Shown here piece after piece: positions 15,467 through 48,566 of a DNA stretch of 64,000 bases. Position numbers and translations under genes: made by a program. The DNA comes from Escherichia coli. GTDB lineage: Bacteria > Pseudomonadota > Gammaproteobacteria > Enterobacterales > Enterobacteriaceae. A model generated the notes under the pieces. That model made no database searches. It was given only the letters and a program-made list of their open reading frames with translations, and was not told the origin of the DNA. How positions within the stretch are numbered: position 1 is the first letter of the stretch; each line of letters starts with the position of its first letter. The stretch is taken from assembly GCF_011045215.1 (NCBI RefSeq), contig NZ_CP049201.1; one strand, given 5' to 3'.

Positions 15467-16111
15467 CATGTTACCAGGAGCCGCGGCTCCTTTGCGTATC
15501 CTTTTATGTCTCCTCACCGTCTGGTCGGTGTCCTGCTGAGACTTCTAACTTCCTGTTTTTGTTGGTGTTGTTTTTACACCTTCCAATCATGATTGGTGCT
15601 GGCGTCCCTGTGCTTTTAATTATAGTGTATTGATATTTAATATTTTTGTTTAAATTAATTTCGTTATGGGTTCCAAAAAGGAACCATAAAGTAGAACCAC
15701 AGAACCTCGCATGGTTCCAACATGCCTAGCGACTTCAAAATAACACGCTCTATGGCAAACTAAATGTAAGTGTGGCTGGATATTTAGCGTCTGATTACTG
15801 AGAGGGTCAATAAAAACTGCTCTATCTCAAATACTGTAGTGGCCCATAAACTTGTCCGCTTGAGTCGATGGTGTACCTCGTCCGTTCAGGCCCGGAGTGG
15901 CTAATTAGCAGAGTATTCATGTCTGCTATGAGCGAGGATCGGACGTAAAACAACTGTAAAAAACTATTTAACTCAGGCAGAAATGTCAAGATTCAGTGAA
16001 AATGTCTAATCACTGGTTCGTTAGAAATGCCCATATGTTGAAAAGGCTGCTGCAAAAAAGTCTCTCGCAGCGGCCTCTTTAATATAACGTCATTGTGTGC
16101 ATCATCTTTAA

Positions 16112-17464
16112 TTATGGGTTTAACTCAAACTGTTCCCCGTTTATTAATTTTCGCAATAAGTCAAGTGCCTCAGATGAGTATTTTCCGACACCACTTTTCC
16201 CAGATTTAATGAAAACATGATAATTGTTGTCTGATGCTTTAATGTTGAAGTCGGTTAGTTTTCTTAATTTTTCGAATTCTTGATTAACATAGTGCCACGA
16301 TCCCATGTCGAGAATCCTTGCCAGATCAGACATTGTATATGGGAAACTAGCATTTAGTGCCTGCCCATTATTGAGTTCAGCGATACCATACATTTTTGCT
16401 AATGCATCATCATGCTCTGCAATATTGCGGAACATCTCAAAATCGTATGGAAGTTCTTGTTTAACAAGGGATTCTGATGCGAATGTGTACGTTCTGGCTA
16501 GAAATGCACGCACAAGTTTTGGATTAACGCTAATTTCCGGTGTATTAGATGATAACGCATCAAAAATCCAACCAAAATTATTTGCGTATATCACCTTGAT
16601 TCGAACGCTTTTATTCTCACCAACACCGATTAGCAATTCCTTTTGATGAGAACCAGTGGCCTCGCAGTCCTTACTGAAGGAGACAAGATAAATATTTGGA
16701 ATCAATGCATTATTGGGAGCGATGATTTCATCTATATCAGAGAGAATTGCCTTTATGTTTTCATCATTGATACTGTACCCAAAGAAAAACAAGGGGTGTT
16801 CAGCAAAATATGTTAGCAACTTAGCACTGATATATTTCTTACGTTTATAGAAATCAACATAATCTTCATTTGTAATAACAATACTTTCAACTTCATGACT
16901 GCTACCATGAATTTTCATGATTTCGCCATAAGATGAATAATTCACTTTAACAACGTTATGACCAACTATTGCCTGATAATTGTCAAATATTTTTTCTAAT
17001 GTGTCGTCATAATTTGTTGTGATTATTGCATGAGGTTTTACTTTCCTTAATTTCTGAACTTCCTCTGTATATTCCATGTTCGAGAAATCAACGGAGTTTG
17101 ATAATTCATTCAGAATGGATGCAATTTCATGCTTAATATAAATATCTTTTGGAGTCGTTCCTTCAAAGTATGTCTCTGGATAGCGATCCTTGCCATCATC
17201 CCAAGCCCATTCAGCATAGAAGTCACAAAAATCGCTAGCAATCAAAGGTTTGTTATCACCCTTTGTTTGGCTGTAGTAACCATAAGGGCGTTTGATCAAG
17301 GGGCATATTTCCGCTAGTTGCTTTAATAGACCTTCCCAGTCAGGCGCTTTTATATATCGTTGTGAAATACCTGCACCCATGAATAAAATGGGTTGGACTT
17401 GTAAGTTTTCAAGGCAAGATTTAACATCTTCGATTATTTCTTCTTGATATTCCGTAAAGTCCAT
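16112..17464 (-). CDS. Stand-alone SIR2-family (ThsA-type SIR2_2-like) protein with unknown C-terminal domain; candidate NAD+-depleting anti-phage effector
   Basis: 450-aa AT-rich ORF; sirtuin-like motifs ILFMGAGIS (GAGxS), ITTNYD, KIHGSSHE (HG) and FFFGYSINDENI line up with ThsA SIR2-domain motifs as I recall them; no partner gene within ~0.7-0.9 kb. Confidence 0.7.
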   Translation of the reverse strand: MDFTEYQEEIIEDVKSCLENLQVQPILFMGAGISQRYIKAPDWEGLLKQLAEICPLIKRPYGYYSQTKGDNKPLIASDFCDFYAEWAWDDGKDRYPETYFEGTTPKDIYIKHEIASILNELSNSVDFSNMEYTEEVQKLRKVKPHAIITTNYDDTLEKIFDNYQAIVGHNVVKVNYSSYGEIMKIHGSSHEVESIVITNEDYVDFYKRKKYISAKLLTYFAEHPLFFFGYSINDENIKAILSDIDEIIAPNNALIPNIYLVSFSKDCEATGSHQKELLIGVGENKSVRIKVIYANNFGWIFDALSSNTPEISVNPKLVRAFLARTYTFASESLVKQELPYDFEMFRNIAEHDDALAKMYGIAELNNGQALNASFPYTMSDLARILDMGSWHYVNQEFEKLRKLTDFNIKASDNNYHVFIKSGKSGVGKYSSEALDLLRKLINGEQFELNP

Positions 17465-18352
17465 ATAGTTACCTCAGGGATAGGTGATTGCTATGTGATG
17501 CACCGCGAAACGGTTCGGGGCTTTGTGACACCCAAACTTTACCCCGGTTTCCCAGCGTTTCCTTTGTATATAATATCATTGAAGTTAATTGCGTTTCTCA
17601 GAAATCTTCTTAGGATGTGATTGCAATAACGGCAACACAGCGCACACATCGCGGCTGATCAGTGAGTATGAAGTGGTTTACTGAATTTGGCCGCCTGAAT
17701 CGAGAGACAAAATGTCCGCTCCTGGCACTAAGCAGAAGTTCCCGAACAACGTAAGCTGGCATATGCCCTCGTTCCTCCGTGGGGACTATCGATCTATTTG
17801 CCGGTTGTGTTTAAGCAATATCGCCAGCGGCGTGAGCTCTCAGTGCATTCAATCAAGCTCACAAATCACACAGTCTTTACTTTTTTTAGATTCCCTAATG
17901 GTTTCGCGTCATAGCCTCAGCCAGATAAACCTGAGCTGCTTTAGGGGTATATGCCTTTCCGAGCATAAAGGATACTGTTTCTATGAAAACTGATCGCGAG
18001 AGCACGATTAGGAGATCAGAACCTGATTTGACATTGATACTGGCTATCAGCGATGGGCAGTTCTCGAATACATCTGACAATCATTTACCTCATTAAGTTT
18101 TATTTCCAGAAGTGCCGTGATCCAGCACGAGTGCTGATAATCAATATCACTTGGGTAATGATTGACAAGTTCACTAAACAACGAGCAGATATTTTAAAAT
18201 TGCCTGCAGCTTCCACATCACCAGGCAGAGGCGTCAGACCCTTAGCACCATACGATTCATAGAGTAATTCCCAATATAGTTGATGCTGAATTTCTTTGTT
18301 CATGTTGAGGCAGTATATTGAAACAATGAGAATGAATCACACATATAAGCTC

Positions 18353-19479: not shown

Positions 19480-19960
<481 letters not shown>

Positions 19961-20102: not shown

Positions 20103-20957
20103 TTGAAAAACTGGTCACCAGAGCATACTAAAGAAATCAAAGCTTGGCTTGACATAGATAACTATCGCAAGCTCGAAGACATCAGTTTAAATGCCTTGTA
20201 TCACGAACTTTGGGCAAGAGCACTTCTGTACAAGCCTGGGCCTACTGACGAAGAAAAGAAAGGGCTATGGGTGTACATGACTGAAATTTTCAGTGGGAAC
20301 CCCCATCTTTTCAAAGGGAAGCATCTCGATTATCCAACAGTTAACGATACTCTCTACAGTCCTCCACACATTTTTATCACGGATATCACCAGGCTTGCTG
20401 AACTTAGTGTGATGGCTCTTAGTGTGAATCTTTTCACCTGGGAGGAAGGAAACGATGAATATTGTGTTAATGCGCCTCATCACGAAGCTTATGTGTCACA
20501 ACTCTTGTCCCCCTTATGTGAGAAAACGGTGTTGCTTGAAATCGATCTTGGTAGTGGTACTGACGATGAAATAGCCGAATCGATAAAAGCGGCCCTGCCA
20601 CAATGGAGATCGGTAAAAGGAGTGGAAGTTAATGAAACCGGTATCGTTCGTTTCGGCTATGGAACCATTAAAAAAATTATAAATTACAGGTTGGTTGCGA
20701 TGCTGGACATCTTACTTTGGGCAAAAAGGAAAGAACTAAGAATCTCAGATGATCGCCTCTCCCGGCTTCTTTATACTGATGAAGATGAAGAAACAACTAC
20801 CCGTTTAGGGTATCACATTAAAGACTCAGATCGTCCGCTTGCGATGAAAGCTGCAACGATAGACTTCATTAGGCAGTTCAATTTTTTCATGAACCGAAAT
20901 CCCCACCTGAAAAACATGAGAGTTTCAGATGTGATGAAACTCTCTGATTCTAACTGA
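20103..20957 (+). CDS. Hypothetical protein (284 aa), upstream of alpA-like gene
   Basis: Long ORF; position before an AlpA-like gene suggests an integrative-element module; no motif recognised. Confidence 0.55.
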   Translation: MKNWSPEHTKEIKAWLDIDNYRKLEDISLNALYHELWARALLYKPGPTDEEKKGLWVYMTEIFSGNPHLFKGKHLDYPTVNDTLYSPPHIFITDITRLAELSVMALSVNLFTWEEGNDEYCVNAPHHEAYVSQLLSPLCEKTVLLEIDLGSGTDDEIAESIKAALPQWRSVKGVEVNETGIVRFGYGTIKKIINYRLVAMLDILLWAKRKELRISDDRLSRLLYTDEDEETTTRLGYHIKDSDRPLAMKAATIDFIRQFNFFMNRNPHLKNMRVSDVMKLSDSN

Positions 20958-21079
20958 TCTCGAATTCCCGAAGTCTACTACTGCAGGGCAGACCGTAACC
21001 CTGCAGTTAGGAAGCTCGCTCCTTTCTTTTCCCAACTGTTCGTATAGTGATCCCATCACAACGACAAAGGGAAAACAAA

Positions 21080-21286
21080 ATGAACAATCAAAATACCCGC
21101 CTAATTCGCTTGCCAGAAGTTATGAACAGAACCGGCTATGGCAAGGCCTGGATTTATCGTCTAATCAACGAAGGTTTATTTCCACAACCAATAAAAATTG
21201 GTTCGCGTGCAATTGCATTTGTCGAAAGCGAAGTAGATGAATGGATCGCATCTGCAATTGAACGTTCACGTAAAAATGCAGCCTGA
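21080..21286 (+). CDS. alpA: AlpA-family (prophage regulatory / excisionase-like) DNA-binding protein
   Basis: ORF 21047-21286; start ATG 21080 preceded by AAGGGA; sequence LIRLPEVMNRTGYGKAWIYRLINEGLFPQPIKIGSRAIAFVESEVDEWI matches the AlpA/MerR-like HTH pattern. Confidence 0.7.
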   Translation: MNNQNTRLIRLPEVMNRTGYGKAWIYRLINEGLFPQPIKIGSRAIAFVESEVDEWIASAIERSRKNAA

Positions 21287-21490
21287 TTACGGGGCTAATG
21301 ATGAGTGTATTAAATTTGGTGTGTAAAAATAAATGGTGCTATTCAACAATGAGCCGAGGGCCGCCTGATATTTTATAAGTAGTATTAGGTTAGGCTTTGG
21401 TATTAAGAAGTAATAACAATAGTCATTGGTGGAGATTATGATGGCATTTTTACCGTGACATTATAAATTAATAAGTACAGGAGATTTAAA

Positions 21491-21766
21491 ATGAATAATT
21501 CAATCAGAGTACCGGAAGATAAAGATTTTGTATGTGCATTTGTGACTTCACCGGATAGCTTGTATGAGGCTATTGAAACCTATCGTAATTATGTAGATCC
21601 AGTCGAAGAGATAGAGTTTGAGCACGTCCTTCTTTATTTGTTGTGTTCTATACTGGTCGAAGGTGCTACAGATGTTACCATTAATGATGAAGTACGAATG
21701 TGTATTGAGCACCTTGTCAATGAAAAAAATATTATCAGAAAGAATAATGCAGGTAAAAAGGTGTAA
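21491..21766 (+). CDS. Hypothetical small protein (91 aa)
   Basis: ORF in AT-rich island segment; ATG preceded by GGAG; no recognised domain. Confidence 0.4.
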   Translation: MNNSIRVPEDKDFVCAFVTSPDSLYEAIETYRNYVDPVEEIEFEHVLLYLLCSILVEGATDVTINDEVRMCIEHLVNEKNIIRKNNAGKKV

Positions 21767-21939
21767 AGTCTGTAATAAATTATCATGGGTACAGACAGCA
21801 CAAGTCTGTACCTTCTTATTTTAATCCTACTGGTAATGATATATAAAAATTATGTGCTTTTGATAGCGGTCATGTGGTTTTGCTATAGTAAGCATTGCAG
21901 GATAGGAATATCCTAAACTTTCATTCTCTGCCCTTTGTT

Positions 21940-22245
21940 TTATTTAAGATAACTGAAAAATACAGGGTTTAAACGATACTGGTATTTGAACTCAGTAGGT
22001 ATAATAACATTCGTATCAATCAGTTCATCGATGGCCCGATAAAATCGGGCTGGCGTAATATGTATATCTTCCTGCTGTGCGATGGATGTTGCACGGTGAA
22101 AGTTCAGGTAAACAGTGTTTTTATCTGGTGTGTATGAAGCGATTAATGTGAGAAGCCAAAACACATAGTGAGCAGTATTGTTCAGATTGCGTTGTTCATC
22201 TGATAATTTATTCTGGTAAAGGTAAGCAGGGAGTCTTTGCTTCAT
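21940..22245 (-). CDS. Hypothetical small protein (101 aa)
   Basis: ORF immediately downstream of the wHTH gene on the same strand; no recognised domain. Confidence 0.4.
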   Translation of the reverse strand: MKQRLPAYLYQNKLSDEQRNLNNTAHYVFWLLTLIASYTPDKNTVYLNFHRATSIAQQEDIHITPARFYRAIDELIDTNVIIPTEFKYQYRLNPVFFSYLK

Positions 22246-22314
22246 AAAGATATCCTTTGTTTTATTAAGTTTTTCGCTGGTGTGGGGCGTAAAATCACCG
22301 CGCTGTTATGTCTT

Positions 22315-22878
22315 TTAAAAGGGAATGCCGTCAGTTGGATATCTGTTTCTGGATTTTTTTACAGGCTTTGTTTTGCGCCCTGCGCGATAAAAGTTGAATG
22401 AAGTGGCAAAATCTTCAGTCTCAAGTCTGGATTTACTGAATTTATCCATCAGATCTTCATTGAAACGATGAGGAATACCTTTTACGCATAAATTAGAATT
22501 CAGGTAAACCTGACCGTCTTCAGCGTTACGGATCAGTATTTTCCTCTCAAATAATTCTCTGAATGCACGTGAAACATTCGATTTATTCAGTCCTAACTCT
22601 CTGGCAGTACGTGACTGTGAAAAGTCAGGGATAATATTTCCATAATCAATGACTGAGAAAAGATAAAGAACAATTCTGAATGCCGTTGGTGTCAGATCCA
22701 TTCGGGCGAGTGTGGCCGTATTATCTTTAAAGACCATCGAAAAATCGTCACGAAAGGATGTCTTTTTACAGGCACTTGCTTTAACTTTTATTTCTTCCAG
22801 ATCTTCGGGCATAACATCTAATGCTTCTGCAATGATTGCTTTTTGTTCTTTAGTTAACATAACACTTGTGTTTGACAT
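22315..22878 (-). CDS. Winged-HTH protein, replication-initiator-like or regulator
   Basis: 187-aa ORF with probable HTH (TARELGLNKSNVSRAFRELFERKIL); lies next to a direct/inverted-repeat-rich noncoding region (23.3-23.7 kb). Confidence 0.55.
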   Translation of the reverse strand: MSNTSVMLTKEQKAIIAEALDVMPEDLEEIKVKASACKKTSFRDDFSMVFKDNTATLARMDLTPTAFRIVLYLFSVIDYGNIIPDFSQSRTARELGLNKSNVSRAFRELFERKILIRNAEDGQVYLNSNLCVKGIPHRFNEDLMDKFSKSRLETEDFATSFNFYRAGRKTKPVKKSRNRYPTDGIPF

Positions 22879-23341
22879 AATGGCTCCTTTTTTATTATTG
22901 TGATAACAGATATGGCATATTAAATTTGTTTGTCAATATTATTAGTAATAAAAATTTTAAAATATTATATTTATTGCTCTGTGATTATTTTTTTAGTGAA
23001 ATATTAAGGGTTGTCAGAGTTATTACGAAGGGTGCTAAATTTCACCATCACCCGTTATGTCATTAATAATTTTTGGTTCTGAAAGATACAACCAATATTC
23101 TATCTTAACTTGTTGATGTAATTGATTAATTTTCTTTTTGTATTTGCAAGATAAAAGAGTGATAAAGAAACAAGAAACCGAAATTTAGCTTTAGACTGAC
23201 ACAAAATTCCATTGTACACAGTTTGATAAACACTGCTATTGCTGATTTTCCTTCGTAATATTATTCCTTAAGTGAAGCCTGCGCACCTGTATGTTGCGCC
23301 ACTGGGCTTCAGAACATTGCTATAGTGTTTAACTGTCAGTA

Positions 23342-23439
23342 GAAATACGCTTCGCGCAGGAGTTCAGACAGTTGGGTTTAGCTCTCAGCACAAATACGCT
23401 TCGCGCAGAGATTCAGACTGCTGAGTTTAGCGAAAGAGT
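23342..23439. repeat. Two tandem ~49-bp direct repeats (AAATACGCTTCGCGCAG.AG.TTCAGAC.G.TG.GTTTAGC)
   Basis: Read directly: 23342-23390 and 23391-23439 are near-identical; followed by nested inverted repeats (GGCTCACGCCGG at 23475-23486 vs GGCGTGAGCC near 23618-23630). Confidence 0.7.
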
Positions 23440-24151
23440 GGACCCGACTACATGATTTACCCGTTAACTTAATACGGCTCACGCCGGAACCCCTTCGGAA
23501 AAATCCTTTCTGCTTCAGCGAGTGAGTGCTGTGGGCACTCAGCGGCGCTGCAAGAGGGATTAAACGTTGGGTTTTCATCTGACGGGTAAAAATAATCTAC
23601 ATATATCTGTCGTCGGGGGCGTGAGCCGGTGCGTAGCACTCTCTCAGAAAAATTCCTGAAGGGGTTTTATCTGAAATCTGGAAACTACCTGGCTTTTGAA
23701 AAAAGGAAGTGGTAATGCAATCGATCGGACTCAACATTGCAACAGCGTAAGCTGTTTCCAGTATTAAAAGAATAAATAGTTGTCATTTTAAAATAAAATA
23801 TTTTCAATTTTGTATTGATTTAAATTTTAAAGCTGATAGTACTTAATTATAAAAACAAAAAAGGAGAGGGTTATGAGTAATATTTTTGTTTCTTCTCAGG
23901 AAGAAAAGTTTATATTTGTTGTTGATAAATATATAACACAGCATCGCGACAGTGTTAATAACAATATTTTTTACAGAAAACTTTATGTGCTTTTCGCTGG
24001 ATACCATCTGAAGTATTTTTATTCACGGGCGCAATATCGCAATTCGTGTTATTGCGTATTCCGCTCTATTCGATCACGGATTGGCATCGAAGTTCGATCA
24101 GCGATTCGCATCCATTCGATCAACCGGGAACTTAACTTTTTCTACCGCTTT

Positions 24152-24907
24152 TTAACTCGTTTTTTCGCTGCTTTCCACTGTCGGGGGATTTTTCCTCAGG
24201 GACTCTCCCTGAAGGACCACTCTGTGTGAGTTATGTACCAGTCTGTCCAGGATGGCATCTGCTGTTGTTGGGTTCTCCATCAGACCATGCCATTTATCTA
24301 CCGGGAACTGGCTTACCACTATCGTGCTGCTTTGTCCGTAACGATCCTCTGTGATCTCCAGAAGGTCATTACACTGGGCGTTACTTAACTGTTCCAGCCC
24401 CAGATCGTCCAGGATTAGAACCTGTATTTTTTGCAACTGTTTCAGATATTTCAGCCAACTGCCATCAACACGTCCCTGAGCCAACTGTTCCAGTAATCGC
24501 CCGGTTCTACAGTACCGGACGCTGTATTTCTGTCGACATGCCTGTTCGCCCAGCGCATTGGCTATCCAGCTCTTACCGCATCCTGTCGGACCGGTTATCA
24601 GTAGGTTTTTCCTGTGGATTATGTAGTGGCCGTTCAGCAGTTCCCTCATCTGTTCAGCCCGCAGACCTCTTGAGGCCGGATAACGCAGCCCTTCCGGTGT
24701 TGCCTGATATTTCAGGCAGGCATTTTTTCTCAACCGTGCCACACGACTGTTTTCTCTGCTCAGAAGCTCGTCATCAACCAGCAGTGTCAGCCTTTCCTCG
24801 AACGACAGTTCGTCGTAAGTCTGAGGCGTTTCCCGTTGCCGTATCAGGCTCCCGGCCATCGCCGGGAGTTTCAGTTGGGTCAGTTTGTTTAACAGATTAT
24901 CACTCAT
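24152..24907 (-). CDS. istB: IS21-family helper ATPase IstB
   Basis: ORF 24152-25150; likely start MSDNLLNKL (24907); Walker A GPTGCGKS and typical IstB layout; overlaps the end of istA. Confidence 0.85.
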   Translation of the reverse strand: MSDNLLNKLTQLKLPAMAGSLIRQRETPQTYDELSFEERLTLLVDDELLSRENSRVARLRKNACLKYQATPEGLRYPASRGLRAEQMRELLNGHYIIHRKNLLITGPTGCGKSWIANALGEQACRQKYSVRYCRTGRLLEQLAQGRVDGSWLKYLKQLQKIQVLILDDLGLEQLSNAQCNDLLEITEDRYGQSSTIVVSQFPVDKWHGLMENPTTADAILDRLVHNSHRVVLQGESLRKNPPTVESSEKTS

Positions 24908-24923
24908 ACGGTTGTTCCTTCTG

Positions 24924-26489: not shown

Positions 26490-26625
26490 TGACGTCTCCA
26501 CTGGTTTAAACACGGCAATGGAGACTGTGGTGAAAAGAGTTAATTCCCGGAGTGACTGGCGAATTCCAATCAATGATCGGAAGTATGCCAAATCGTGATC
26601 GATTGTGATGCCAACATATCCTTAC

Positions 26626-28100: not shown

Positions 28101-28195
28101 TATGTGATGCCAAACTGTGATCGGAGATGGATGCCAAATCATGATCGATTCGAATGCCAAACTGCGATCGATTCAGATGCCATTTTGCAGTTATC
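28100..28195. repeat. Displaced IS21-family subterminal repeat block (3-4 copies of ATGCCAAA..TGATCGATT)
   Basis: Read directly: GTGATGCCAAACTGTGATCGG, GGATGCCAAATCATGATCGATT, CGAATGCCAAACTGCGATCGATT, CAGATGCCA. Confidence 0.6.
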
Positions 28196-28897: not shown

Positions 28898-28923
28898 AAA
28901 ATAATCCCAGACTGTAGAGTACG

Positions 28924-29322: not shown

Positions 29323-29359
29323 ATTAATTTTTTATGTTTGCGGTGGTATGAAATTAATA

Positions 29360-29635: not shown

Positions 29636-29820
29636 GACTCCGTGGCCTGATTTAAGGTGATGTATTTTTGAACATTTTCGATGAATGATCCGCTTTAGTA
29701 AAATTGCTTGTACCGATCGATGGATCTCTGTTGATAGGTTATAACTATCATAACAAGATTATCGATCTATATAAACGATCAATATTTTATTGACTATCAC
29801 TAAAATATGGATTAGTTAAC

Positions 29821-32573: not shown

Positions 32574-32588
32574 AATTTTTCTCCTCTG

Positions 32589-35133: not shown

Positions 35134-35177
35134 CCTCGCGCATATAGCCGGGCAGTGACATCATCGTCTGCGCGGAA

Positions 35178-35555: not shown

Positions 35556-35600
35556 GTTGGGACCATTACCAAATAGTTTATATGCTAAAAATTTAGGGAA

Positions 35601-38600: not shown

Positions 38601-38840
38601 ATCAGGTGTGCTGATCTGCATCACCTGTTTCAGGGCTTCCTCACACTTCTGTTCACTAAGGTGCGGATTCAGGCGTTGTAGAGCAATACGCACCTTATCT
38701 TCAAGGATAACCTGCTGATAGCTACGTAACGGATTGATTCCACTGGGTTCAATGTCCGGGCCGTAAACATACTCATAGCCCAGCCCTTGCAGGTGCTCAA
38801 TTGCCATTACTTCAATATCGGATTCGGTCATCTTTGCCAT
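35601..38840 (-). pseudogene. hsdR: Type I restriction enzyme R subunit HsdR interrupted by an in-frame amber codon
   Basis: ORFs 37701-38840 (N-terminal, helicase motif I GSGKS) and 35601-37646 (C-terminal) are in the same frame, separated by a single TAG at 37701-37703 (...[33 protein letters not shown]...). Confidence 0.8.
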
Positions 38841-38898
38841 GCGTACTGTCCTTATTGCCGCTTAACCAGAGAGCGGGCTGTACACCCGCATAATTATT

Positions 38899-40050
38899 TT
38901 ATGCTACTGATGCGATTGCTTCTTCTGCATACTGAACCCGTACTTCACCGCTCATCAGTTTGGGAAGTAAGGTATCGCGGAGTTTTTCTAAGCTATCAAT
39001 TTGTTTTGAGTTGTTAATAAGTTTACTTTCAAATGAATCTAATAACTCATTAATTATACGTAGGGAAGCTTCTGTTGGCAGATTAACATTGAACTTCTTA
39101 AGATGATCCAAGTTAACTCGTTGTCTGCCACTTGAACCTTCCATACAGCTTTCTGCATATTCTTTGAAGTCCGGGTTTCGGCACATGATATATGAGATAA
39201 AAGGATGGATTTCTTTTTTAGGACGCATAACTATGAATTCGGTAGAACCCCATCCAGTTTCATTGTCGTCTAAAAAATCAATATAGGCCGCTTTCCCATT
39301 TTCTAAACATGGGGTAATTCTGGCTAGCAAGGTATCTCGTTTAGTAAATTTAGTTCCTGAAGAAAATGGACGTCTGTAATATCCATTTGCACGAAAATTA
39401 ACAGTGCTCAGTCCAGCCATGTCCAAATAAGTAGCGTCTTGGCTTTTAATTAAAGTTCGCTTTGGATTAAAGTCAATTATCTGATCTATACTAACTGATA
39501 CACCAGTGCTATCTAAAATAAACCACTGCCTAAACAGGGTTTCAGCCATAGATTCTAGTGTTTTATTCTGGCAATGAAGCAGGTCTATTTTGTCTTTAAG
39601 AGAGGACAAAATAGAGGCGATGGCTTTTTGTTCAGATTCATCAATTGGTAAGTAAAGAGGAATCAAATTTAGCGATGCTTTATTTAATTTTGGTTGAGCA
39701 GCACCTGTTAAATAAGGAGATAGATCAAGTTGTGAAAAATATTGGATTATCAATGCCGTTAAATGGGGCTTTTTAGCTTTAAGGACATGAGCGTGATTAT
39801 TAACCCAAAATTTTCCAGTAGCTTCAAATGCTATAGGTGTTTTTCTGGAATTTAAGTTTTCTCCATCTTCAGAAATAAGGATGTAGCTGCCATCAAAAAT
39901 ATAATTGTCGATATAATCGACAATTCCTGACGCTCCATAATATGGAAAATTTCCTTTCTTATGGGCTCGTTCCATAGCACTCAAAGGAATTCTTTGTGCG
40001 TTGCAAAAATCTGCTAATTCAGTTATACAAAAATTTCTCCACCTACTCAT
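38899..40050 (-). CDS. hsdS: Type I R-M specificity subunit HsdS
   Basis: 383-aa ORF between hsdR and hsdM, start overlapping the hsdM stop; two-TRD architecture with conserved central and C-terminal helical regions. Confidence 0.75.
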
Positions 40051-41594
40051 AAAACCACCTTCGCCAGATTATCAACGATGGCTCTGTTCAGACGCGCCTC
40101 TTCTTCCAGTTGCGCTTCAAACTCAGCTTTAAGAGCCGTAAAGCGTTCTTTAAAGTCGAAATCGTCTTCTTCATCAGCAAGACCAACATAACGGCCAGGT
40201 GTCAGCACATAATCGAGTTTAGCAACTTCAGCAATGTCTACTGACGCACAGAAACCAGCGACGTCTTCGTAGTCGCCACCTTTGTTACGCCAGTTATGGT
40301 AGGTATCGGCTATGGTTTTAATATCGTAGTCAGACAGGACTTTGGTTCGACGATTAATTAAATGGCCTAAATTCCGGGCATCAATAAACAGAATTTCTTT
40401 ACTGCGATCACGATATTGGCTGCTATTTTCACGATCACGACGCATAAACCATAACGCCGCAGGGATCTGGGTGTTCAGGAACAGTTTTGCAGGTAAATTT
40501 ACGATACAGTCAATCACATTGGCATCTTTTACCAGTGCGGCACGGATATCACCTTCACCAGAACTTTTAGATGTTAAAGCCCCTTTTGCCAGTACAACAC
40601 CAGCCTGACCTTTTGGCGACAGGTGATACAGAAAATGCTGCATCCAGGCAAAGTTAGCATTCCCGGTAGGTGGGATACCGTATTGCCAACGGGCATCGCC
40701 ACGAAGCTGCTCACCGGACCAGTCAGACACGTTAAACGGTGGATTGGCAATGATAAAATCAGATTTTAGATCTTTGTGGGCATCGTTAAGGAATGAGCCT
40801 TCACTGTTCCAGCGGACGTGTTCTGAATTGATACCCCGGATAGCCAGGTTCATTTTTGCCAGACGCCAGGTGGTCTGGTTGGATTCCTGACCGTAAATCG
40901 AAATATCGTCAATATTTCCCTGATGCGCTTCAACAAATTTTTCTGACTGAACGAACATACCACCGGAACCGCAGCAAGGGTCAAAGACTCGGCCTTTATA
41001 GGGTTCCAGCATGTTAACCAGCAGGCTTACGATGGATTTTGGCGTATAGAACTGACCGCCCTGTTTGCCTTCTGCCAGTGCAAATTCACCAAGGAAGTAT
41101 TCGAATACGTGGCCTAATACATCAGCAGAACGCGCTTTGGCATCTCCCAGTGCAATGTTGCCAATCAGATCTATCAGTTCACCCAGCACAGTTGCGTCGA
41201 GGTTCTGGCGAGCGTAGACTTTCGGCAGCACACCTTTTAGCTGTGGGTTACCCGCTTCGATAAGCTCCATAGCATCATCAACCAGCTTACCGATTTCGGG
41301 TAGCTTTGCCTTAGATATTAGATAGTTCCAGCGTGCAAGCTCAGGGACAAAGAAAATGTTGTAAGCGGTGTACTCGTCTCTATCTTCCGGGTCAGCGCCT
41401 GCGAACTCGCCTTCACCAGCCTTCAGCAACTCATAATGAGATTCAAAAGAATCAGAAATATACTTAAGGAAAATCAGGCCCAGCACGACATGCTTGTACT
41501 CGGCTGCATCAATGTTCTTACGTAGCTTGTCAGCCGCTTTCCACAGGATGACCTCTAACGGGTCTGTTTTGATTTCTTTAGGTTTTCTGGCCAT
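40047..41594 (-). CDS. hsdM: Type I R-M N6-adenine DNA methyltransferase HsdM
   Basis: 515-aa ORF with AdoMet-binding motif [10 protein letters not shown] and catalytic NPPF. Confidence 0.9.
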
Positions 41595-41754: not shown

Positions 41755-42070
41755 ATGTCAGGTCATTGCCGTCAATGGAGCCAGTGTCATTGGCATAATT
41801 GCTGCACAGCCGATGCCACGCGCACATTCGCTAGTTCACTGTGGTTCATCGTGTGTACTACACCAGTACGCAGTCCGGGAAGTAACGGCATGGCAGAATC
41901 GTTTGTAAAGACGTTCAAGCGGGATTATGTGTACGTAGATGATCTGCTGGATGCAGTCTAAATGATGGAAACAATGGCAGAATAGATAGAGGATTATAAT
42001 AATCTGCATCCACACAAGGGGTTGAACATGAAATCGCCACGCGAATATCGTGATGCCATATTAGCAGTTA
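41755..42070 (+). pseudogene. IS3-family (IS2-group-like) transposase OrfB C-terminal remnant with internal stops
   Basis: ...NGMAESFVKTFKRDYVYV...IEDYNNLHPHKGLNMKSPREYR... resembles the IS2 InsD C-terminus (NGIAESFVKTIKRDYI...HYNEWHPHSALGYRSPREY). Confidence 0.55.
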
Positions 42071-42515
42071 ATTAGCCGTGTCCGTTTTAGCAGGGACAAC
42101 TCCAGTATTCAAAAAAGCTTTCTTAGTGCATATGCATGAGGTGAATAGATGTACAGGCTATGACAAACCATAGTTGTAATTTTTAATGTTTAAAATTCTC
42201 CGTTACAGTAGGACACTCCTTGTACATTAAATTCCATCTAAGGTTGAATTTTTAATTTAATAAGGTCGCAATCTAAAATGATGTGTATGGGGTTATTTGT
42301 AAGATGATTTTTTATGTTTGATAGTGGTGATTAAGGGAGCGGGTAATGTTTGTCTATTCAAAAATATAGAGATTCAAGGTTGGTAGCAGTTTGGCTTCTT
42401 TTCTAACCGAAGGGCAGAAAAGCAAGGGGAACTCGAAGAAGCAAGCGCAGCGGCTTCGCAGAGTTAGCCCTTGCTTCTCTTATAATTGGCATTATTCATT
42501 CAAGAACAATAGGAT

Positions 42516-42535
42516 CTTCGCTTGTACAAGCGAAG
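42516..42535. repeat. 20-bp perfect palindrome CTTCGCTTGTACAAGCGAAG
   Basis: Read directly; lies in a 1.1-kb AT-rich intergenic region upstream of the ParB-like/recombinase module, near a second inverted repeat (42414-42479). Confidence 0.8.
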
Positions 42536-43189
42536 CTATAATAAAAACAATCAATTAATTATTTTAAAAGTATTAAACAAGAACCTATTGACATTCATAA
42601 AATACAAGTTATTTATAATGTATGCCATAAATAAAAAGTTTTATGTCATATGTATCCTGCACTATGTGCAGTTAATGTACCACTTGTCCCATAGATGGGA
42701 ATATTGGAAAGGTTACTTTGTTTTGAAGTAGCCTTTCGTCCTTCAATATTAACGATTACTTATTGCTATTACCAAGTCCAGTCGAATCGAAGAACATCTT
42801 TTATCTGAAACGACTCCTAATACCCGGTTAAAGCCACAATAACTCTCGCATACGTAGACCAAAGAAAAATTATGATATTAAATATGTGATTTTTTTTAGT
42901 GTTAAGTTGAATAATTAAATACTGGAGAGTTTTCTGTGCACTACCAATTGCTGGTTCATCTGTTCTGCCGCTGATGTTTCTGACGAATCTCCCGGTGACA
43001 CAGAACTGTCCCTCTCTACCAGCCTTTATTCGACTCAATGTCCGGCTGCTGATACGCAGTTATCCCTTCGTATCAATGACTGACACTTAAACGTAATGCT
43101 TTGGTTGCTGGCGTATCTGACAGCTTCTTCGGCGTGAAGGTCGTTGTGTAAGTATACTTCTTGGTTTATTTAGGCTATATAAAACATGA

Positions 43190-44086
43190 CTATGACTTGC
43201 TGTTTTCAGTAAGAGTCTTATCATCCAAAGAATTTATTCTAGAAATTCTTTTTAACTCATTAAGATAATCAACCTCGTTTTCTAAGAACCAATGAAGAAC
43301 TTTAGAATTGCCAAGTAATTTATTAATATATGACTGGATTATAACGAATTTCAACATATCTGAACCATACTCGGTTTGAAGCTTTTTCGTTTCTTCCGAA
43401 GTTGTTGCCATTTCTTGTTCCAGACGAAGTATGGTTTTTTTTATATCCTTTTTATAGGGAGTGTTTTTCCCTTTATTTACTATCATCGATGCCGGTGTTG
43501 CATCCAAGATGCTCATTGCAAATTTTTTACTATAATTATCAAAATTAATCATTGTACCGACTGCTTCAATTTGGCGAATTGGCTTCATTTTCCTCAAAAC
43601 GTCAAATGTAGCCTTAGGTATAGGTTTATCAGAAAGTTTCGCAATTACACTTGGATCTATGCCGTTCATCACATTCGCTTTATCTTTTATGGCATCAACA
43701 GATATGCCCAAAGCAGCACTAAGTTTTTCAATTGATACTTTTGCCAGAGACTTAATTATCATTCTATGTTCTTCAACTACATTTATATGATTCACTTGTT
43801 TGTTAGGAGTGAAAGCATCATCTATGCTCGAAAGTATACATGGAGCTTTTTCTATACCTAAGTCTTTTAAAGCCTCAACCCTTAAATGGCCATCAAGTAT
43901 CTTAGTGACATCTTTATCTTTGTCATAGAATACTATTATTGGTTCAATAATACCTAAGCTTTCGATAGAGGTAACTATTTGATGATATTTATGGCTTCGC
44001 TTTACGTTTTCTAATAATTCCTTAGATGGAATTAACTTATTAGTTTCCAGGTAAATAAAATTATCGCCAAAACGTATCTGAATCAT
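43190..44086 (-). CDS. ParB-N-terminal-domain (ParB/Srx-fold) protein, paralog B
   Basis: 298-aa AT-rich ORF; ILDGHLRVEALKDLG resembles the ParB arginine-patch box (GERRxRA); start overlaps upstream stop (ATGA). Confidence 0.65.
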   Translation of the reverse strand: MIQIRFGDNFIYLETNKLIPSKELLENVKRSHKYHQIVTSIESLGIIEPIIVFYDKDKDVTKILDGHLRVEALKDLGIEKAPCILSSIDDAFTPNKQVNHINVVEEHRMIIKSLAKVSIEKLSAALGISVDAIKDKANVMNGIDPSVIAKLSDKPIPKATFDVLRKMKPIRQIEAVGTMINFDNYSKKFAMSILDATPASMIVNKGKNTPYKKDIKKTILRLEQEMATTSEETKKLQTEYGSDMLKFVIIQSYINKLLGNSKVLHWFLENEVDYLNELKRISRINSLDDKTLTENSKS

Positions 44087-44979
44087 TTTAATACCTCTTT
44101 GTTTACTGGGGTTAATATCTGAGATGGTAGTTCTGAAAGATTCTCTTGTTCAAGTATATGTTGAAAGCTTTTATTCATCATTATGATGTTAAAAATCTCA
44201 TTTACTATTAGTAGGTTGGTTTTTATGAATTTTGAGTTGTTATAAACAGATTTATGTTCAGCGATACTATTTTCATAAAGCTCAATCAACTCCTCTGCAG
44301 TCATCCTTTTTGATGGTTTGTGATAATAAAATCCGGCTGCTTTTGCACCTTTATTCCCAACTGTTCTTTGATTTAGAATGTGTTTTATCTTTATAATGTC
44401 CCGACTTTTTATTAATTTTTTATCATATGCTTCGGTAAGAATATCTTGTGCTTCCTCAGTTTCACATCTTGCAAATTGCACTGCGAGATACAGAGGCAAA
44501 TTACCCCGTTCGACTGCTGAGAGAAGTTTATGCTCTCCCTTATCAAGTAGCATATTAATACTGCTCACCCAGTTCGATGAATATCCAGTAATCTCACTTA
44601 TTTCGGAGTCTGAAAGTCCTCTGATTTTCATGTCTTTAATCACCTGTAATAACTCATTAGAACGTGGTCTTCTCCTTGCAATGTTTTCAACTAAACTCAT
44701 AACGTAAGCATCTTCTTCTGATACATCTCTTATAATTGCTGGAATAATAGTTTCACCTAATGCAACGAGAGCCTCTATTCTCCCTTGACCACAAATTAAA
44801 GCATATTTGAAATCGCCTTCATCAATAGCTCTTACGCTTATAGGCTTGCTTAATCCTCTTTTTTTTATGCTTTCCTTTATTTCTTCATGCACTAACTTAT
44901 TTCTTGTTCGTGGGTTAAGAAATTTTATTTTTGCAATCTCAATTTGAATTATTGGGAATTCATTTTTTTCAGGCAGCAT
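44083..44979 (-). CDS. ParB-N-terminal-domain (ParB/Srx-fold) protein, paralog A
   Basis: 298-aa ORF; LICGQGRIEALVALG ParB-box-like motif; start overlaps the recombinase gene end. Confidence 0.65.
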   Translation of the reverse strand: MLPEKNEFPIIQIEIAKIKFLNPRTRNKLVHEEIKESIKKRGLSKPISVRAIDEGDFKYALICGQGRIEALVALGETIIPAIIRDVSEEDAYVMSLVENIARRRPRSNELLQVIKDMKIRGLSDSEISEITGYSSNWVSSINMLLDKGEHKLLSAVERGNLPLYLAVQFARCETEEAQDILTEAYDKKLIKSRDIIKIKHILNQRTVGNKGAKAAGFYYHKPSKRMTAEELIELYENSIAEHKSVYNNSKFIKTNLLIVNEIFNIIMMNKSFQHILEQENLSELPSQILTPVNKEVLK

Positions 44980-46525
44980 ATAGTTCCCTCACTTTCATGC
45001 GAGTAATAATTTGTAGAAGTTTATCAAGATTATCAAATCTATAGAGATCTAATCGAATGTTGTTTGTTTCCGTCATGCACATTTTATTATATTCGTTTTC
45101 AATCTTTGGTATGATATAAAAATCAAGAGGTGAAATATTTTGTGAATTCATTCGTATAACAATTGTTATGTCTGCTTTCTGTGAGTTATCAAACCGGACT
45201 TTCCATCTAAGTTTACCTGATTTCATATGTATGCATTTAGTAACAAGGACGGAAATTAAAAACTCATCATTGATGTAAAGCATTGGGGCATATTTATACT
45301 CGTCTATATGACAGTTACTTTTTAAAATTTCACCCTTAAAATCCTCAATTATCTCTGAGTGAAATGATCTTAGTGCTTCATTTATTTTGAGATAGCTGTA
45401 ATCATGTTCTGGCTTATAACCAATCAAAGTATATGCTCTTAAAAGACCACCAAATCGGGTTCTATAAACAGAAGATGAAGGGCCTGTATCATCTTCATCA
45501 ATGATAAAGCCTGATAGTTTTCCATTAGATTCTAATTTTTGTTTTAGTTTTTCTAATAGATCTTCATTAGTCAAATGAATGGATCGGAGCTGAATTATTT
45601 CTTGAGCTTTATTGTATTTTTTCTTTGAAATAATAGGTTTATATGCCTTGTCACATCTAACCCATTCATGTTTGGGGTTTTTTACAAGCCTACTTTTTAA
45701 TTTAGATGAGGTTTTGTTATATATGTTGTTTCCAATATATTTTTCATTTGTCAAAATTTGATGTATTTTTGCACGAGTCCATAATGTTCCATTTTCTGCA
45801 GGTATGTTCTGTTCATTTAATCTCTCAGCAATAATGAATTCTGGGACGTTATTATCTATAAAGAGATCATATATTCTATTTACAATTTTTATTTCATTTT
45901 TTGGTCCCGGAATTAATATTACCCTATCTGTTTGAATACTCTTTCTTTTGCGGAAACTCAATATTTCTTTAGCTATGCCATTTTCGTCTACTAAAAGACG
46001 TCTCAGCCCATAACCAGCCATACCGCCTTGATGATAACCAAGCTTTATTAAATTTACTTGCCCTATAAATACCTTTTCAGATAAATTCCTGCTGTGATAT
46101 GCAGCACTAGATCTTTTTATATTCAGTATAACAGAGGACTCTAAAGGGAAATCTTTAGTGGGTATAGGTTCGGAACAATATATAAGATCTACACCATTTC
46201 TCTCAAATAGAAAGGAATAATATGCCGCTTCATCACTATTTTGAAAACGACCAAAACGGCTCACATCATAAAATAATACAGCCTGTATATCTATTTTCTT
46301 TTGTTCTACATCGCTAAGTAACTGCTGCAAAGAATGCCTGCCTACGATACTGACTCCGCTCTTACCTGCATCATCGTAGGTATAAGCGATTTCCATATTG
46401 TTCTTTTCAGCATAATCTTTGATATATTCGGACTGATTATGTAAAGAATATTGCTGATGGTCGGTAGACATCCTCAAGTACTGCGCGACCCTAACTCTAT
46501 GATTTTTGTCATTTTCGCTAGCCAT
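44969..46525 (-). CDS. Large serine recombinase (resolvase catalytic domain plus recombinase domain)
   Basis: 518-aa ORF; N-terminal YLRMSTDHQ (catalytic Ser motif) ... DVSRFGR typical of the serine recombinase fold; length indicates the large-serine-recombinase class. Confidence 0.8.
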   Translation of the reverse strand: MASENDKNHRVRVAQYLRMSTDHQQYSLHNQSEYIKDYAEKNNMEIAYTYDDAGKSGVSIVGRHSLQQLLSDVEQKKIDIQAVLFYDVSRFGRFQNSDEAAYYSFLFERNGVDLIYCSEPIPTKDFPLESSVILNIKRSSAAYHSRNLSEKVFIGQVNLIKLGYHQGGMAGYGLRRLLVDENGIAKEILSFRKRKSIQTDRVILIPGPKNEIKIVNRIYDLFIDNNVPEFIIAERLNEQNIPAENGTLWTRAKIHQILTNEKYIGNNIYNKTSSKLKSRLVKNPKHEWVRCDKAYKPIISKKKYNKAQEIIQLRSIHLTNEDLLEKLKQKLESNGKLSGFIIDEDDTGPSSSVYRTRFGGLLRAYTLIGYKPEHDYSYLKINEALRSFHSEIIEDFKGEILKSNCHIDEYKYAPMLYINDEFLISVLVTKCIHMKSGKLRWKVRFDNSQKADITIVIRMNSQNISPLDFYIIPKIENEYNKMCMTETNNIRLDLYRFDNLDKLLQIITRMKVRELYAA

Positions 46526-46807
46526 GCACGAAACCTCATGGGTGATTCAATACAATGTAGAGGATAAAATTGATCAAATTTTAACCGAATTCAACTGTTT
46601 TATCATTGATTAGAGCGAATTTGGTAGATCTTCGAGGTGTATGATAATCGAGAAGAGATGTGAATTATTTAGCTGATATGACCGACAGCTTTCGTTATGT
46701 GGACTCAATGTCCCCATTTGTAAATGGCTATGCTTAGTCCACATAGGTTAATGGTGTGATTATTAATTCTTTAACTAAATCAAGATAGTTAATCCATCAT
46801 GGGAGAG

Positions 46808-48037
46808 TTATGCGGCAATAACTTTGCATTTTTGAGACGAAACATAGTCACTCCACCATTGCATGAGAACCACCCGTTCAGTGAGATACTCTGCACGATT
46901 GTAGGCTGCAATTATTTCATCTTTCTTCGAGTGGGCAAGGGCGGCTTCTAAGACATCAGTCCTAAACTTGCCAGACTCCTCAGCAGCCGTTCTAGCAATG
47001 GATCGCATACCGTGAGCTACAAGCTCACCTCCGAAACCCATACGGATTATGGCCGCATTAGCTGTTTGTTCATGCATGTGATTGAGTGGAGCTTTGATAC
47101 TGGGGAACACCCACTCTCTATGCCCGCTGATGACTTTCATTAAATCCAAAACTCGCAAAGCTTCTTTGCTCAGTGGAACTTTGTGAGGCTTCTTCATTTT
47201 CATAAACTCCGCCGGGATGTTCCACATGCCAGTTTCAATATCAATATCTGACCATCTTGTGCGAACAGCTTCACCTGGGCGAACCCATGTGAGAAGTTGC
47301 CACTCAATCAGTAGCCTTGTTTCCAAACGGATAGAAGCATTGTTTAGAGCAACCAAGAAGCGAGGGAGTTCGGAAGGGGGTAATGCTGGCATATTCTGTT
47401 TTTTTGGCTTGCTGAACCGTTGCCCCAGGTTGTCTGCCGGGTTGAATTCTATGAGTTCTTCTGTTGCTGCATAGCGGAAAATTTCATTCAGGCGGGATAT
47501 GATGCGGCGAAGTGTTTCAAGGACACCTCGTTTTTCTATGGGTTCTAAATGCTGTTTAAGCATTTTAGGGCGAATCTCCTTAATTGGGGTATCACCCAAT
47601 GTGGAAAAGATATTTCTCTCTAGGCTTCGCCAGATGTCGTTAGCATGATCTTGGGAGATGCCTGACGTTTTGACTTTCTCATCAAGCCACTTCTTGGCTA
47701 CTGCTTGAAATGTATGTTCCGTGGCATCTTTCAGTGCATTGGCTTTTTGGTTGTTATGAACTTGGGGGTCTATACCATTTGTAAGCAACGACAAGTATTC
47801 ATCACGTAAAGCTCGTGCCTTCGCAAGTGTAAGGTGAGGATAGGTTCCTAAGCTCACCTTAGTTCGCTTTTTGGTCACAGGCACTGCATATCTGAAATAC
47901 CAATTTTTCTTCCCTCCCTTCGCCAGGGGAGCGATTCGCAACAGCAAACCATCGCCGTCAAAAAGGTTAACCTCTTTTTCGGCAGGTTTGGTGCTTTTGA
48001 TTTCAGTGTCAGTGAGCTTCTTAGCGATTTTGGCCAT
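46808..48037 (-). CDS. P4-type tyrosine integrase
   Basis: ORF 46808-48118; likely start MAKIAKKLTDTEIK (48037, ~409 aa); C-terminal catalytic-domain residues (...HGMRSIARTAAEE...); located 166 bp from the ssrA 3' end, same orientation. Confidence 0.85.
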   Translation of the reverse strand: MAKIAKKLTDTEIKSTKPAEKEVNLFDGDGLLLRIAPLAKGGKKNWYFRYAVPVTKKRTKVSLGTYPHLTLAKARALRDEYLSLLTNGIDPQVHNNQKANALKDATEHTFQAVAKKWLDEKVKTSGISQDHANDIWRSLERNIFSTLGDTPIKEIRPKMLKQHLEPIEKRGVLETLRRIISRLNEIFRYAATEELIEFNPADNLGQRFSKPKKQNMPALPPSELPRFLVALNNASIRLETRLLIEWQLLTWVRPGEAVRTRWSDIDIETGMWNIPAEFMKMKKPHKVPLSKEALRVLDLMKVISGHREWVFPSIKAPLNHMHEQTANAAIIRMGFGGELVAHGMRSIARTAAEESGKFRTDVLEAALAHSKKDEIIAAYNRAEYLTERVVLMQWWSDYVSSQKCKVIAA

Positions 48038-48203
48038 GTTTGGGACCCTCGATTTTAGGACCCATCTTCGTGGGTCCCATTCAGGGTGCCATAACTCGTA
48101 GTTCTCAGCAATTCTCACTAGACTACAATAGACGTAAAAAAGCCCGCAGAGCTTGTGCTGTGCGGGCTTAGTAGACTTTACTGAACTTCAGTACATCAAT
48201 ATT

Positions 48204-48566
48204 TGGTGGAGCTGGCGGGAGTTGAACCCGCGTCCGAAATTCCTACATCCTCGGTACTACATGCTTAGTCAGTCTTTACATTCGCTTGCCAGCTGCGGAC
48301 GGACACGCCACTAACAAACTAGCCTGATTAAGTTTTAACGCTTCAACCCCAGGCAGGGCTTCCACGCGATCTCTTTTGGGTTTGACCTCTCTTGATCCCC
48401 GTCCTAAGAGCGGAGGCTAGGGAGAGAGGGCTCTAAGCAGGTTATTAAGCTGCTAAAGCGTAGTTTTCGTCGTTTGCGACTATTTTTTGCGGCTTTTTAC
48501 GAGGCCAACCGCCCCTCGGCATGCACCTTGGGTTTCGCAAATCCCGTCGAATCCAGAATCAGCCCC
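48204..48566 (-). ncRNA. ssrA: tmRNA (SsrA)
   Basis: Reverse complement reads GGGGCTGATTCTGGATTCGACGGGATTTGCGAAACCCAAGGTGCATGCCGAGGGGCGGTTGGCCTCGTAAAAAGCCGCAAAAAATAGTCGCAAACGACGAAAACTACGCTTTAGCAGCTTAA...GCTCCACCA, i.e. E. coli tmRNA including the ANDENYALAA tag-encoding segment; 363 nt. Confidence 0.97.

Follow-up and report, generated by a model that had tools for sequence, protein, structure and literature searches.

A probable integrative mobilizable element with modular cargo at the ssrA 3' end of Escherichia coli

Boundaries of the island and the empty site

In the present study, we analyzed the DNA between ypjA and ssrA, the gene for transfer-messenger RNA (tmRNA), in a stretch of 64,000 nucleotides from Escherichia coli (contig NZ_CP049201.1; hereafter, the window). 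The segment 15594-48217, which includes an att core at either end, is most probably a single island whose own P4/CP4-57-family integrase inserted it site-specifically into the ssrA 3' end, and which combines the backbone of an integrative mobilizable element (IME) with modular cargo. The tmRNA gene is a classic integration site. The island proper extends from 15605 to 48203 (32,599 bp), to which one core copy is added; its features are listed in Table 1.

DNA of strain K-12 aligns to window positions 423-15604 and 48198-50159 only, and nothing aligns between them. The K-12 psaA, an annotated 14-nt pseudo-fragment of ssrA at which CP4-57 ends, 160 bp from the ypjA stop codon, maps to the remnant of the attR core, which is likewise 160 bp past the ypjA stop. 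It was from this homology break and from psaA that attR was located, after repeat searches had missed it. On the minus strand, its context is ...AAAAGCACAGGGA-CGCCAGC---ACCA-ATCATGATTGG..., which corresponds to the ssrA end CGCCAGCTCCACCA less three bases. Exact k-mers of the ssrA 3' region (11-20 nt) have no relevant second copy in the window; a 13-mer match inside the AlpA gene was rejected as chance. In a short-word BLAST search with the ssrA 3' region, attR was unranked, the top non-self matches being the T-arm of the ileY tRNA and a 69%-identical SIR2 stretch, and it was likewise missed when an 18-mer was searched with as many as four edits allowed. The case illustrates how an att site can escape a search for exact repeats.

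The attR core varies among sister strains that carry this island. In ET915 it is a perfect 14-nt repeat (CGCCAGCTCCACCA), in 23AR1217 it has the psaA form, which is one base shorter, and in B-1109 and 99COLEC it has larger deletions; thus, erosion of the core proceeds independently from lineage to lineage. In the attR cores of CP4-57-type islands from Enterobacter, Kluyvera and Citrobacter loci, the sequence is always CTCCGCCAGC-CCACCA, without the T of ssrA. This T is also missing from most attR copies of the studied island (23AR1217 and three metagenome contigs), which suggests that the T-less form originates from attP, with a crossover 3' of the T position, and not from decay. From this form, the attR core erodes further through small deletions.

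The empty site (attB) was reconstructed from 150 nt at the ssrA 3' end and 150 nt from the far side of attR, and this synthetic sequence served as the query against 5426 complete E. coli genomes. It is contiguous in many of them (300/300 nt at 99.3% identity), and matches over 80% or more of the query were obtained in up to 2528 genomes; in strain D6, for example, ssrA is followed by ypjA 160 bp on. Thus, the island is a clean insertion at 15605-48203. An integrase beside an intact ssrA, a displaced repeat of the ssrA 3' end at the far boundary, and an empty site in relatives, as expected of an island that targets tmRNA, are all present. The GC content of the island is 40.6% (39.6% without the ISSso4::IS4 insertion), as compared with 49.9% for the core DNA on the ssrA side and about 50% for the flanking core DNA in general.

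A preliminary description of this DNA had proposed an island of about 32 kb at the ssrA 3' end in the place of CP4-57 of K-12. The length of 32.6 kb agrees with this, and the att pair encloses the entire segment and not a smaller element. Alignment with K-12 and other strains showed that the segment is not core DNA and is missing from most E. coli, and the base composition (40.6% against 49.9% GC on the ssrA side) also agreed. The description had called the distal boundary uncertain, which was justified. It had found no convincing attR by eye; this has to be corrected, since a degenerate copy is present, and the island start that it gave (15470) misses the true boundary by about 130 bp, on the outer side. 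The boundary that it left open is now settled, attR being recognisable despite its decay.

Integrase and mobilization genes

The start codon (ATG) of the integrase gene is exactly 166 bp from the tmRNA 3' end, and the gene shares its strand with ssrA, both as had been read from the sequence in the preliminary description. The full-length protein contains the Pfam domains Arm-DNA-bind_3 (PF13356), Phage_int_M (PF22022) and Phage_integrase (PF00589), and is 48% identical to IntA of K-12; its catalytic R, HxxR, H and Y residues (in VRPGE, HGMRSIA, LAH and AYNR) align with those of IntA. Integrases that are 81-91% identical were found at 21 loci in about 15 other genera of Enterobacterales, with the ssrA 3' end approximately 166 bp upstream of the start.

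The relaxase has Tyr19 and the histidine motif HxDx6HxH (HDDSDGQHIHIIANR), and over its N-terminal 250 aa it is 42-49% identical to relaxases of small (7-10-kb) mobilizable plasmids. In Photorhabdus and in a gut Enterobacteriaceae genome, homologs of the MobC-like gene, the relaxase gene and the 132-aa open reading frame (ORF) come after the integrase gene at a distance of no more than 6-7 kb, with the order kept; a homolog of the 106-aa ORF was found at the Photorhabdus locus only. In Pluralibacter, the MobC-like and relaxase genes are about 9-10 kb from the integrase gene, at the far edge of the locus fetched, which ends within the relaxase gene. This synteny in other genera indicates that the integrase and mobilization genes form one backbone. 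Among the non-nested ORFs of at least 100 aa at 15.6-48.2 kb, which were scanned or assigned to remnants of insertion sequences (ISs), no component of a type IV secretion system and no type IV coupling protein was found, and searches of Pfam, NCBIfam and PHROGs gave no phage structural, packaging or replication genes. An integrase, an AlpA homolog and a relaxase/MobC pair, without mating-pore or phage genes, constitute the gene set of an IME.

The nearest supposed plasmid match of the relaxase, OX345050.1 (3.6 kb), was rejected as a plasmid, since it is a linear contig with the same order of ankyrin, MobC and relaxase genes; a related Salmonella island is its probable source. The relaxase gene carries a perfect hexanucleotide repeat, (TGGCAC)x9 at 30178-30231, which encodes (VP)9. 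The annotated length of the relaxase is 409 aa here, 413 aa in B-1109 and ET915, and 407 aa in 23AR1217 and 99COLEC, and variation in repeat length may cause these differences. PHROG matches of the small ORFs next to the relaxase gene, including the 132-aa ORF, are families of unknown function.

Distribution and flank contexts

The proximal 20 kb of the island is complete in 28 of the 5426 E. coli genomes and the distal 8.4 kb in 29; the island occurs, unremarked, in RefSeq genomes such as E24377A. A 26-nt pattern from its attR-side end (P arm and core) matched five metagenome contigs. One contig continues from the island end into the ancestral flank. Two others continue into the arm of CP4-57, and one of these extends far enough to include an integrase 95% identical to IntA; the remaining two continue into a third P4-type island, with its arm and integrase. 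Since one end is joined to three different right-hand flanks, always at the core, these contexts point to independent site-specific integrations into differently occupied ssrA sites. Homologous replacement may be another route to the same arrangement.

The integrase gene and the serine recombinase-ParB-ParB triad beside it adjoin ssrA in 523 genomes. In the remnant of NT1F34, the integrase gene and the triad are followed by IS3 and then ileY; in that of REL606, by IS1 and then glaH; and in NRZ99027-2 the deletion is bounded by IS2. Thus, IS-mediated deletions explain why the integrase gene and the triad are found beside ssrA in 523 genomes and the full island in only 28-29.

A possible life cycle

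On integration, the island supplies the sequence and the terminator 3' of the regenerated ssrA end (attL), and the original downstream DNA is displaced behind a short copy of the ssrA end (attR), 160 bp from ypjA. A possible course of excision and transfer is as follows. The integrase, together with the AlpA-family protein as a regulator or excision factor, would excise the island as a circle. The MobC-like protein and the MOBQ-like relaxase would then nick a nearby origin of transfer (oriT), the mating apparatus of a co-resident conjugative plasmid would carry the circle to a new host, and the integrase would reinsert it at ssrA. The attP junction expected of the circle is …AAAGCACAGGGA-CGCCAGC(T)CCACCAA-ATATTGATG….

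Alternative explanations

Several observations weigh against a single mobilizable island. The attP pattern had no match in the metagenome contigs. The alpA gene is about 26 kb from the integrase gene and does not adjoin it. A search around the mobilization genes for a nick-site consensus and inverted repeats of oriT yielded one hairpin only, and no consensus matched. The copy in the window is damaged by the insertions of ISSso4::IS4 and IS1, the stop codon in hsdR, a truncated ankyrin gene and the shortened attR, and it is probably poorly mobile or immobile now. Furthermore, the triad block and the 3' end of the integrase gene vary among variants of the island, so that some modules were gained or lost by recombination and did not arrive with the original element.

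A different history would be tandem accretion, in which a recent island of integrase and triad lies before an older island with the restriction-modification (R-M), ankyrin, mobilization, AlpA and SIR2 genes, whose own integrase gene and attL were deleted. Triad-less islands exist (ET915 and 99COLEC), 523-659 genomes, including E. coli B REL606, retain the integrase gene and the triad alone, and genuine tandem arrays at ssrA are known from the loci examined; in an island array at argW, the triad is flanked by two 3' fragments of int, as expected of a deletion within a tandem array. A core-like sequence, CGCCAGCAACCA, is present at 43102-43113; we rejected it as an internal att site, because it is part of an annotated IS3 fragment and core genes also contain similar motifs by chance. 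However, the integrase gene of ET915 and 99COLEC (about 97% DNA identity) directly abuts the same R-M, mobilization and AlpA backbone, and where these islands have 36 bp, the window has a clean 4.1-kb block. The states with integrase and triad only end at copies of IS3, IS1 or IS2 and hence are IS-mediated deletions, no integrase remnant or convincing internal att site was found within the island, and synteny of int with the mobilization genes extends to other genera. On this evidence, a single backbone is better supported than a series of unrelated islands, and we regard tandem accretion as improbable. It is far less probable still that the island is a degenerate P4-like satellite or a cryptic prophage like CP4-57, which would be moved by phage packaging and not by conjugation. 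The integrase family and the att site are those of CP4-57, an AlpA homolog is present, DUF6387 and the 132-aa ORF match PHROG families of unknown function, and P4-like satellites occupy this hotspot according to passages of PMC10121019; but searches of Pfam, NCBIfam and PHROGs gave no primase-helicase (alpha) and no capsid-size or helper-control genes (sid, psu, delta), nor was a cos site seen, a relaxase and MobC-like pair is present instead, and the island has no DNA similarity to CP4-57. Finally, the segment could have been ancestral DNA lost from K-12 and most strains, with the attR-like motif a product of chance; attR matches the ssrA end at only 11/14 nt, and both the exact k-mer and the 18-mer fuzzy searches missed it. 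This explanation is refuted by the empty site, the perfect repeat of ET915 and the flank data: the motif is exactly at the K-12 homology break and the empty-site junction, and the same island end is found at three different flanks. The low GC content also speaks against it.

Table 1. Features of the island and its att sites (window positions)
Feature	Position	Strand	Basis or remarks
B' arm, ancestral ssrA-downstream DNA (ATCATGATTGG...) up to ypjA stop	15434-15593	-	directly 3' of ssrA in empty-site genomes, e.g. D6
attR core remnant	15594-15604	-	CGCCAGC---ACCA; K-12 homology break, psaA position; near-perfect or perfect copies in sister strains
P arm, conserved island end	15605-15944		kept in ET915 although adjacent cargo differs
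attR-proximal cargo slot	15945-17710	-	by comparison with ET915; holds SIR2_2 gene here
SIR2_2 gene, 450 aa	16112-17464	-	PADLOC candidate PDC-S25, 4.1e-77, residues 10-338
Third ankyrin paralog, 334 aa	18353-19357	-	
IS21/IS3 fragments	~19520-19862		RefSeq annotation of homologous locus
Regulatory module	20103-23872	mixed	DUF6387, AlpA, two small ORFs, helix-turn-helix (HTH) gene, 1 kb non-coding
DUF6387 gene	20103-20957	+	matches PHROG family of unknown function
AlpA	21080-21286	+	Pfam Phage_AlpA 2.3e-20; 34% identical to K-12 AlpA
HTH 'Rep-like' gene, 187 aa	22315-22878	-	
ISSso4 (IS21 family; istA, istB) with nested IS4-family element at 26614-28105	24053-28189	-	5-bp target duplication GTTAT
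Three small conserved ORFs (106, 132, ~90 aa)	28577-29644	-	syntenic with relaxase in Photorhabdus and gut Enterobacteriaceae genome
Mobilization module	29821-31451	-	MobC/NikA-like gene and MobA/VirD2 relaxase
Relaxase, MobA/VirD2 domain, 409 aa, MOBQ-like	29821-31050	-	PF03432, 80.8 bits
MobC/NikA-like gene, 134 aa	31047-31451	-	
Candidate oriT region upstream of MobC-like gene	31452-31628	-	9-bp-stem hairpin 31545-31573; by inference
Ankyrin-repeat gene 1 of pair, intact	31629-32573	-	Pfam Ank families
146-aa ORF between the two ankyrin genes	within 31629-34371		
Ankyrin-repeat gene 2 of pair, truncated to 226/328 aa	33691-34371	-	Pfam Ank families
IS1 copy	34836-35600	+	left inverted repeat 34836-34858, transposase ORF; adjoins hsdR; absent in 99COLEC
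Type I R-M locus	35601-41594	-	NCBIfam hsdM and hsdR matches
hsdR pseudogene	37701-38840 + 35601-37646	-	in-frame stop splits it into 379 + 681 aa (translation)
hsdS, intact	38899-40050	-	
hsdM, intact	40047-41594	-	
IS3-family transposase remnants and non-coding DNA	41809-43116		RefSeq annotation of homologous B-1109 positions
ParB_N/RepB-C gene 2, 298 aa, overlaps gene 1	43190-44086	-	
ParB_N/RepB-C gene 1, 298 aa	44083-44979	-	
Large serine recombinase, 518 aa, first triad gene	44969-46525	-	Pfam Resolvase and Recombinase
P4/CP4-57-family tyrosine integrase, 409 aa	46808-48037	-	NCBIfam PRK09692, 444.6 bits (cut-off 434)
P' arm (island-supplied, 3' of ssrA)	48038-48202	-	terminator hairpin 48136-48169; read from sequence; 166-bp spacing recurs elsewhere
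attL core	48203-48217	-	CGCCAGCTCCACCA(A), tmRNA final 14 nt + 1 nt; block identical to attR in sister strains
ssrA (tmRNA), integration target	48204-48566	-	ARAGORN and Rfam RF00023, 295.8 bits

Comparison with known elements

CP4-57 of K-12 (b2622-b2646; intA, alpA, psaA) shares with the studied island the att site at the ssrA 3' end and the position of attR, 160 bp from ypjA. The integrases are of the same family (48% identity), an AlpA homolog is present in both (34%), and the attR core of CP4-57 lacks the T, as do most copies of the studied island. In contrast, the cargo of CP4-57 has no DNA similarity to that of the island, and only the flanks align. CP4-57 has no relaxase, MobC-like gene, type I R-M locus, SIR2 gene, ankyrin genes or recombinase-ParB triad, all of which are present in the studied island. 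The role of AlpA is known for CP4-57; in the island, unlike CP4-57, its gene is far from the integrase gene. P4-like satellites, which are said to have defence hotspots in work attributed to Rousset et al. 2022, resemble the island in having a P4-type integrase and variable defence genes in a fixed slot. However, their replication and capsid-hijacking genes are missing from the island, which has a conjugative mobilization module instead.

IMEs such as SGI1 and the MGI elements are a reviewed class (Guedon et al. 2017, PMC5704250). As in these elements, a tyrosine integrase, a small excision or regulatory factor, a relaxase with an accessory protein, the absence of mating-pore genes and variable cargo are found in the studied island; the target (ssrA here) and the relaxase lineage differ from those of SGI1/MGI-type elements. 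The tmRNA locus is E. coli defence hotspot #9, which is occupied by prophages, P4-like satellites, IMEs and transposons, according to passages of Hochhauser et al. 2023 (PMC10121019). The chromosomal site is the same, and defence-carrying IMEs, satellites and prophages are reported there in those passages, and no mention of the studied island, its boundaries or its cargo slot was found in the searched main-text passages of that paper. The espC pathogenicity island of enteropathogenic E. coli, 15.2 kb in length, is also located at ssrA (PMC7545054); it shares the integrase and the locus, but its virulence cargo (EspC) is absent from the studied island.

The island adds a further member, partly decayed, to a well-known class of mobile islands with anti-phage cargo. 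Since both the hotspot and the element class have been described before, the result is an incremental one for E. coli biology. It documents that mobilizable islands directed to ssrA form a family across Enterobacterales, in which the backbone is fixed and defence genes are exchanged in two slots: the slot beside attR holds SIR2, a Gabija-like pair, or Shedu with HEPN, and the slot beside the integrase gene holds the triad.

The recombinase-ParB-ParB triad

The most novel component of the island is the uncharacterised triad. The nearest solved relatives of the large serine recombinase are TP901-1 Int, TnpX and SPbeta SprA. The first ParB protein has a GxGR/ENxARR-type motif and the second a DGHxR motif. 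The block that contains the triad (42742-46841, 4.1 kb) is replaced by 36 bp in the otherwise identical islands of ET915 and 99COLEC. The triad was found in 659/5426 E. coli genomes, including REL606 and BL21. Furthermore, it is kept as an operon of overlapping genes, at about 45% identity, on Agrobacterium pAtC58 and on plasmids of Burkholderia, Sphingobium and Marinibacterium (Alpha- and Betaproteobacteria), and in Piscinibacter it directly follows the TniQ gene of a Tn7-like element.

In the island array at argW (CUVET21-37 and VE-T2), a 94%-identical triad has a 3' fragment of int on either side; both fragments have the same orientation, and they are 94% and 82% identical to window positions 46807-47050. 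This arrangement could be due to a cassette that targets the 3' ends of integrase genes, or to a deletion within a tandem array of islands. Candidate terminal repeats of the triad are the 12-mer GACTCAATGTCC, which is present on both sides (at about 43026 and about 46702), and a palindrome at 46696-46745. In a literature search, no description of a recombinase-ParB-ParB module was found. In the Dehalococcoides genomic islands at ssrA, a large serine recombinase and a gene with a ParB domain belong to a six-gene module (PMC3146451); there, the serine recombinase is the proposed integrase, whereas in the studied island the tyrosine integrase accounts for the att sites. We tentatively suggest, as a rather unlikely reading, that the triad is an undescribed self-contained module, either a serine-recombinase cassette that inserts at the 3' ends of P4-type integrase genes or a new maintenance or anti-invader system that is carried in cargo slots. 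The practical value of these candidate genes is that they are testable in common laboratory strains, e.g. BL21 and REL606.

Defence and ankyrin cargo

The SIR2, ankyrin, alpA/Rep-like, mobilization, type I R-M and recombinase-ParB genes named in the preliminary description are all present, and its view that the cargo is unlike that of CP4-57 is borne out by the lack of DNA-level similarity to K-12 between ypjA and int. The word mosaic also applies, in the sense of modular cargo and IS insertions inside a single att-bounded element. As for the ISs, those of the IS21, IS4, IS1 and IS3 families were found, but the label IS2 was not confirmed, since only IS3-family fragments were seen.

The slot near attR is bounded by the conserved island end on one side and by the 334-aa ankyrin gene on the other; its flanks are conserved and its content is exchanged. 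About 140 bp of the P arm nearest attR is also conserved in 99COLEC. The slot contains genes for an AAA ATPase, Shedu and a HEPN protein in ET915, and a Gabija-like nuclease-helicase pair in 99COLEC; by its sequence, the SIR2 gene found here is a candidate defence gene.

Of the three type I R-M genes, hsdR is split and the other two, hsdM and hsdS, are intact, so that the system is not complete; in sister strains hsdR is intact and encodes 1079 aa. Restriction was probably lost, and methylation by the hsdM and hsdS products may persist.

The three ankyrin genes are paralogs over their full length (about 28% identical) and have a common non-ankyrin C-terminal domain (…VKWFIRNDIKVD…KKRL). In a Salmonella contig (L010, 2277-3224), an ankyrin homolog is located beside a MobC-like gene. 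If transfer starts at the putative oriT, the two ankyrin genes beside it would be in the leading region.

Regulatory module, insertion sequences and decay

The non-coding 1 kb upstream of the 187-aa HTH gene (22879-23872) contains a 49-bp tandem repeat at 23327-23431 (2.1 copies, 84% matches). An Rfam search of this stretch matched no family; the repeat could be iteron-like or regulatory.

The insertion of ISSso4::IS4 splits a 141-aa ORF, which 23AR1217 has in intact form, into 23873-24052 and 28190 onward; at this site, the insertion was found in no complete E. coli genome of the collection. In strains 357900 and Ceylon31, an ISSso4 copy with an IS4-family element fills a 4137-bp stretch at other chromosomal sites, where the ISSso4 parts are 100% identical (64% query coverage). 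In strains C5 and 52F4, the entire composite aligns without a break at 97.6%, and therefore the nested pair may transpose as a unit. For the IS1 copy beside hsdR, the right inverted repeat was not found at 34836-35600, and its right end is approximate. At the position equivalent to the IS3-family remnants, NT1F34 has an intact IS3.

The neighbouring chromosome

The host segment is a chromosome of the E. coli/Shigella type, with core genes in the order gabD, lhgO, glaH at one end of the window and smpB, ratA, bamE, recN, nadK, grpE, ffh onward at the other. The segment with ygaQ', ileY, ypjC and pinH' has a low GC content (36.6% over 4544-10570), as compared with 49.1% for ypjA (10571-15433), and looks like the remnant of an older island outside the ssrA island. 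In 23AR1217, window positions 4638-15442 are replaced by an unrelated sequence of 333 bp (L002, 5109-5441), and therefore the island abuts glaH there. The tRNA at 7588-7663, which ARAGORN reports as tRNA-Met(CAT), is ileY in the K-12 annotation, that is, tRNA-Ile(CAU).

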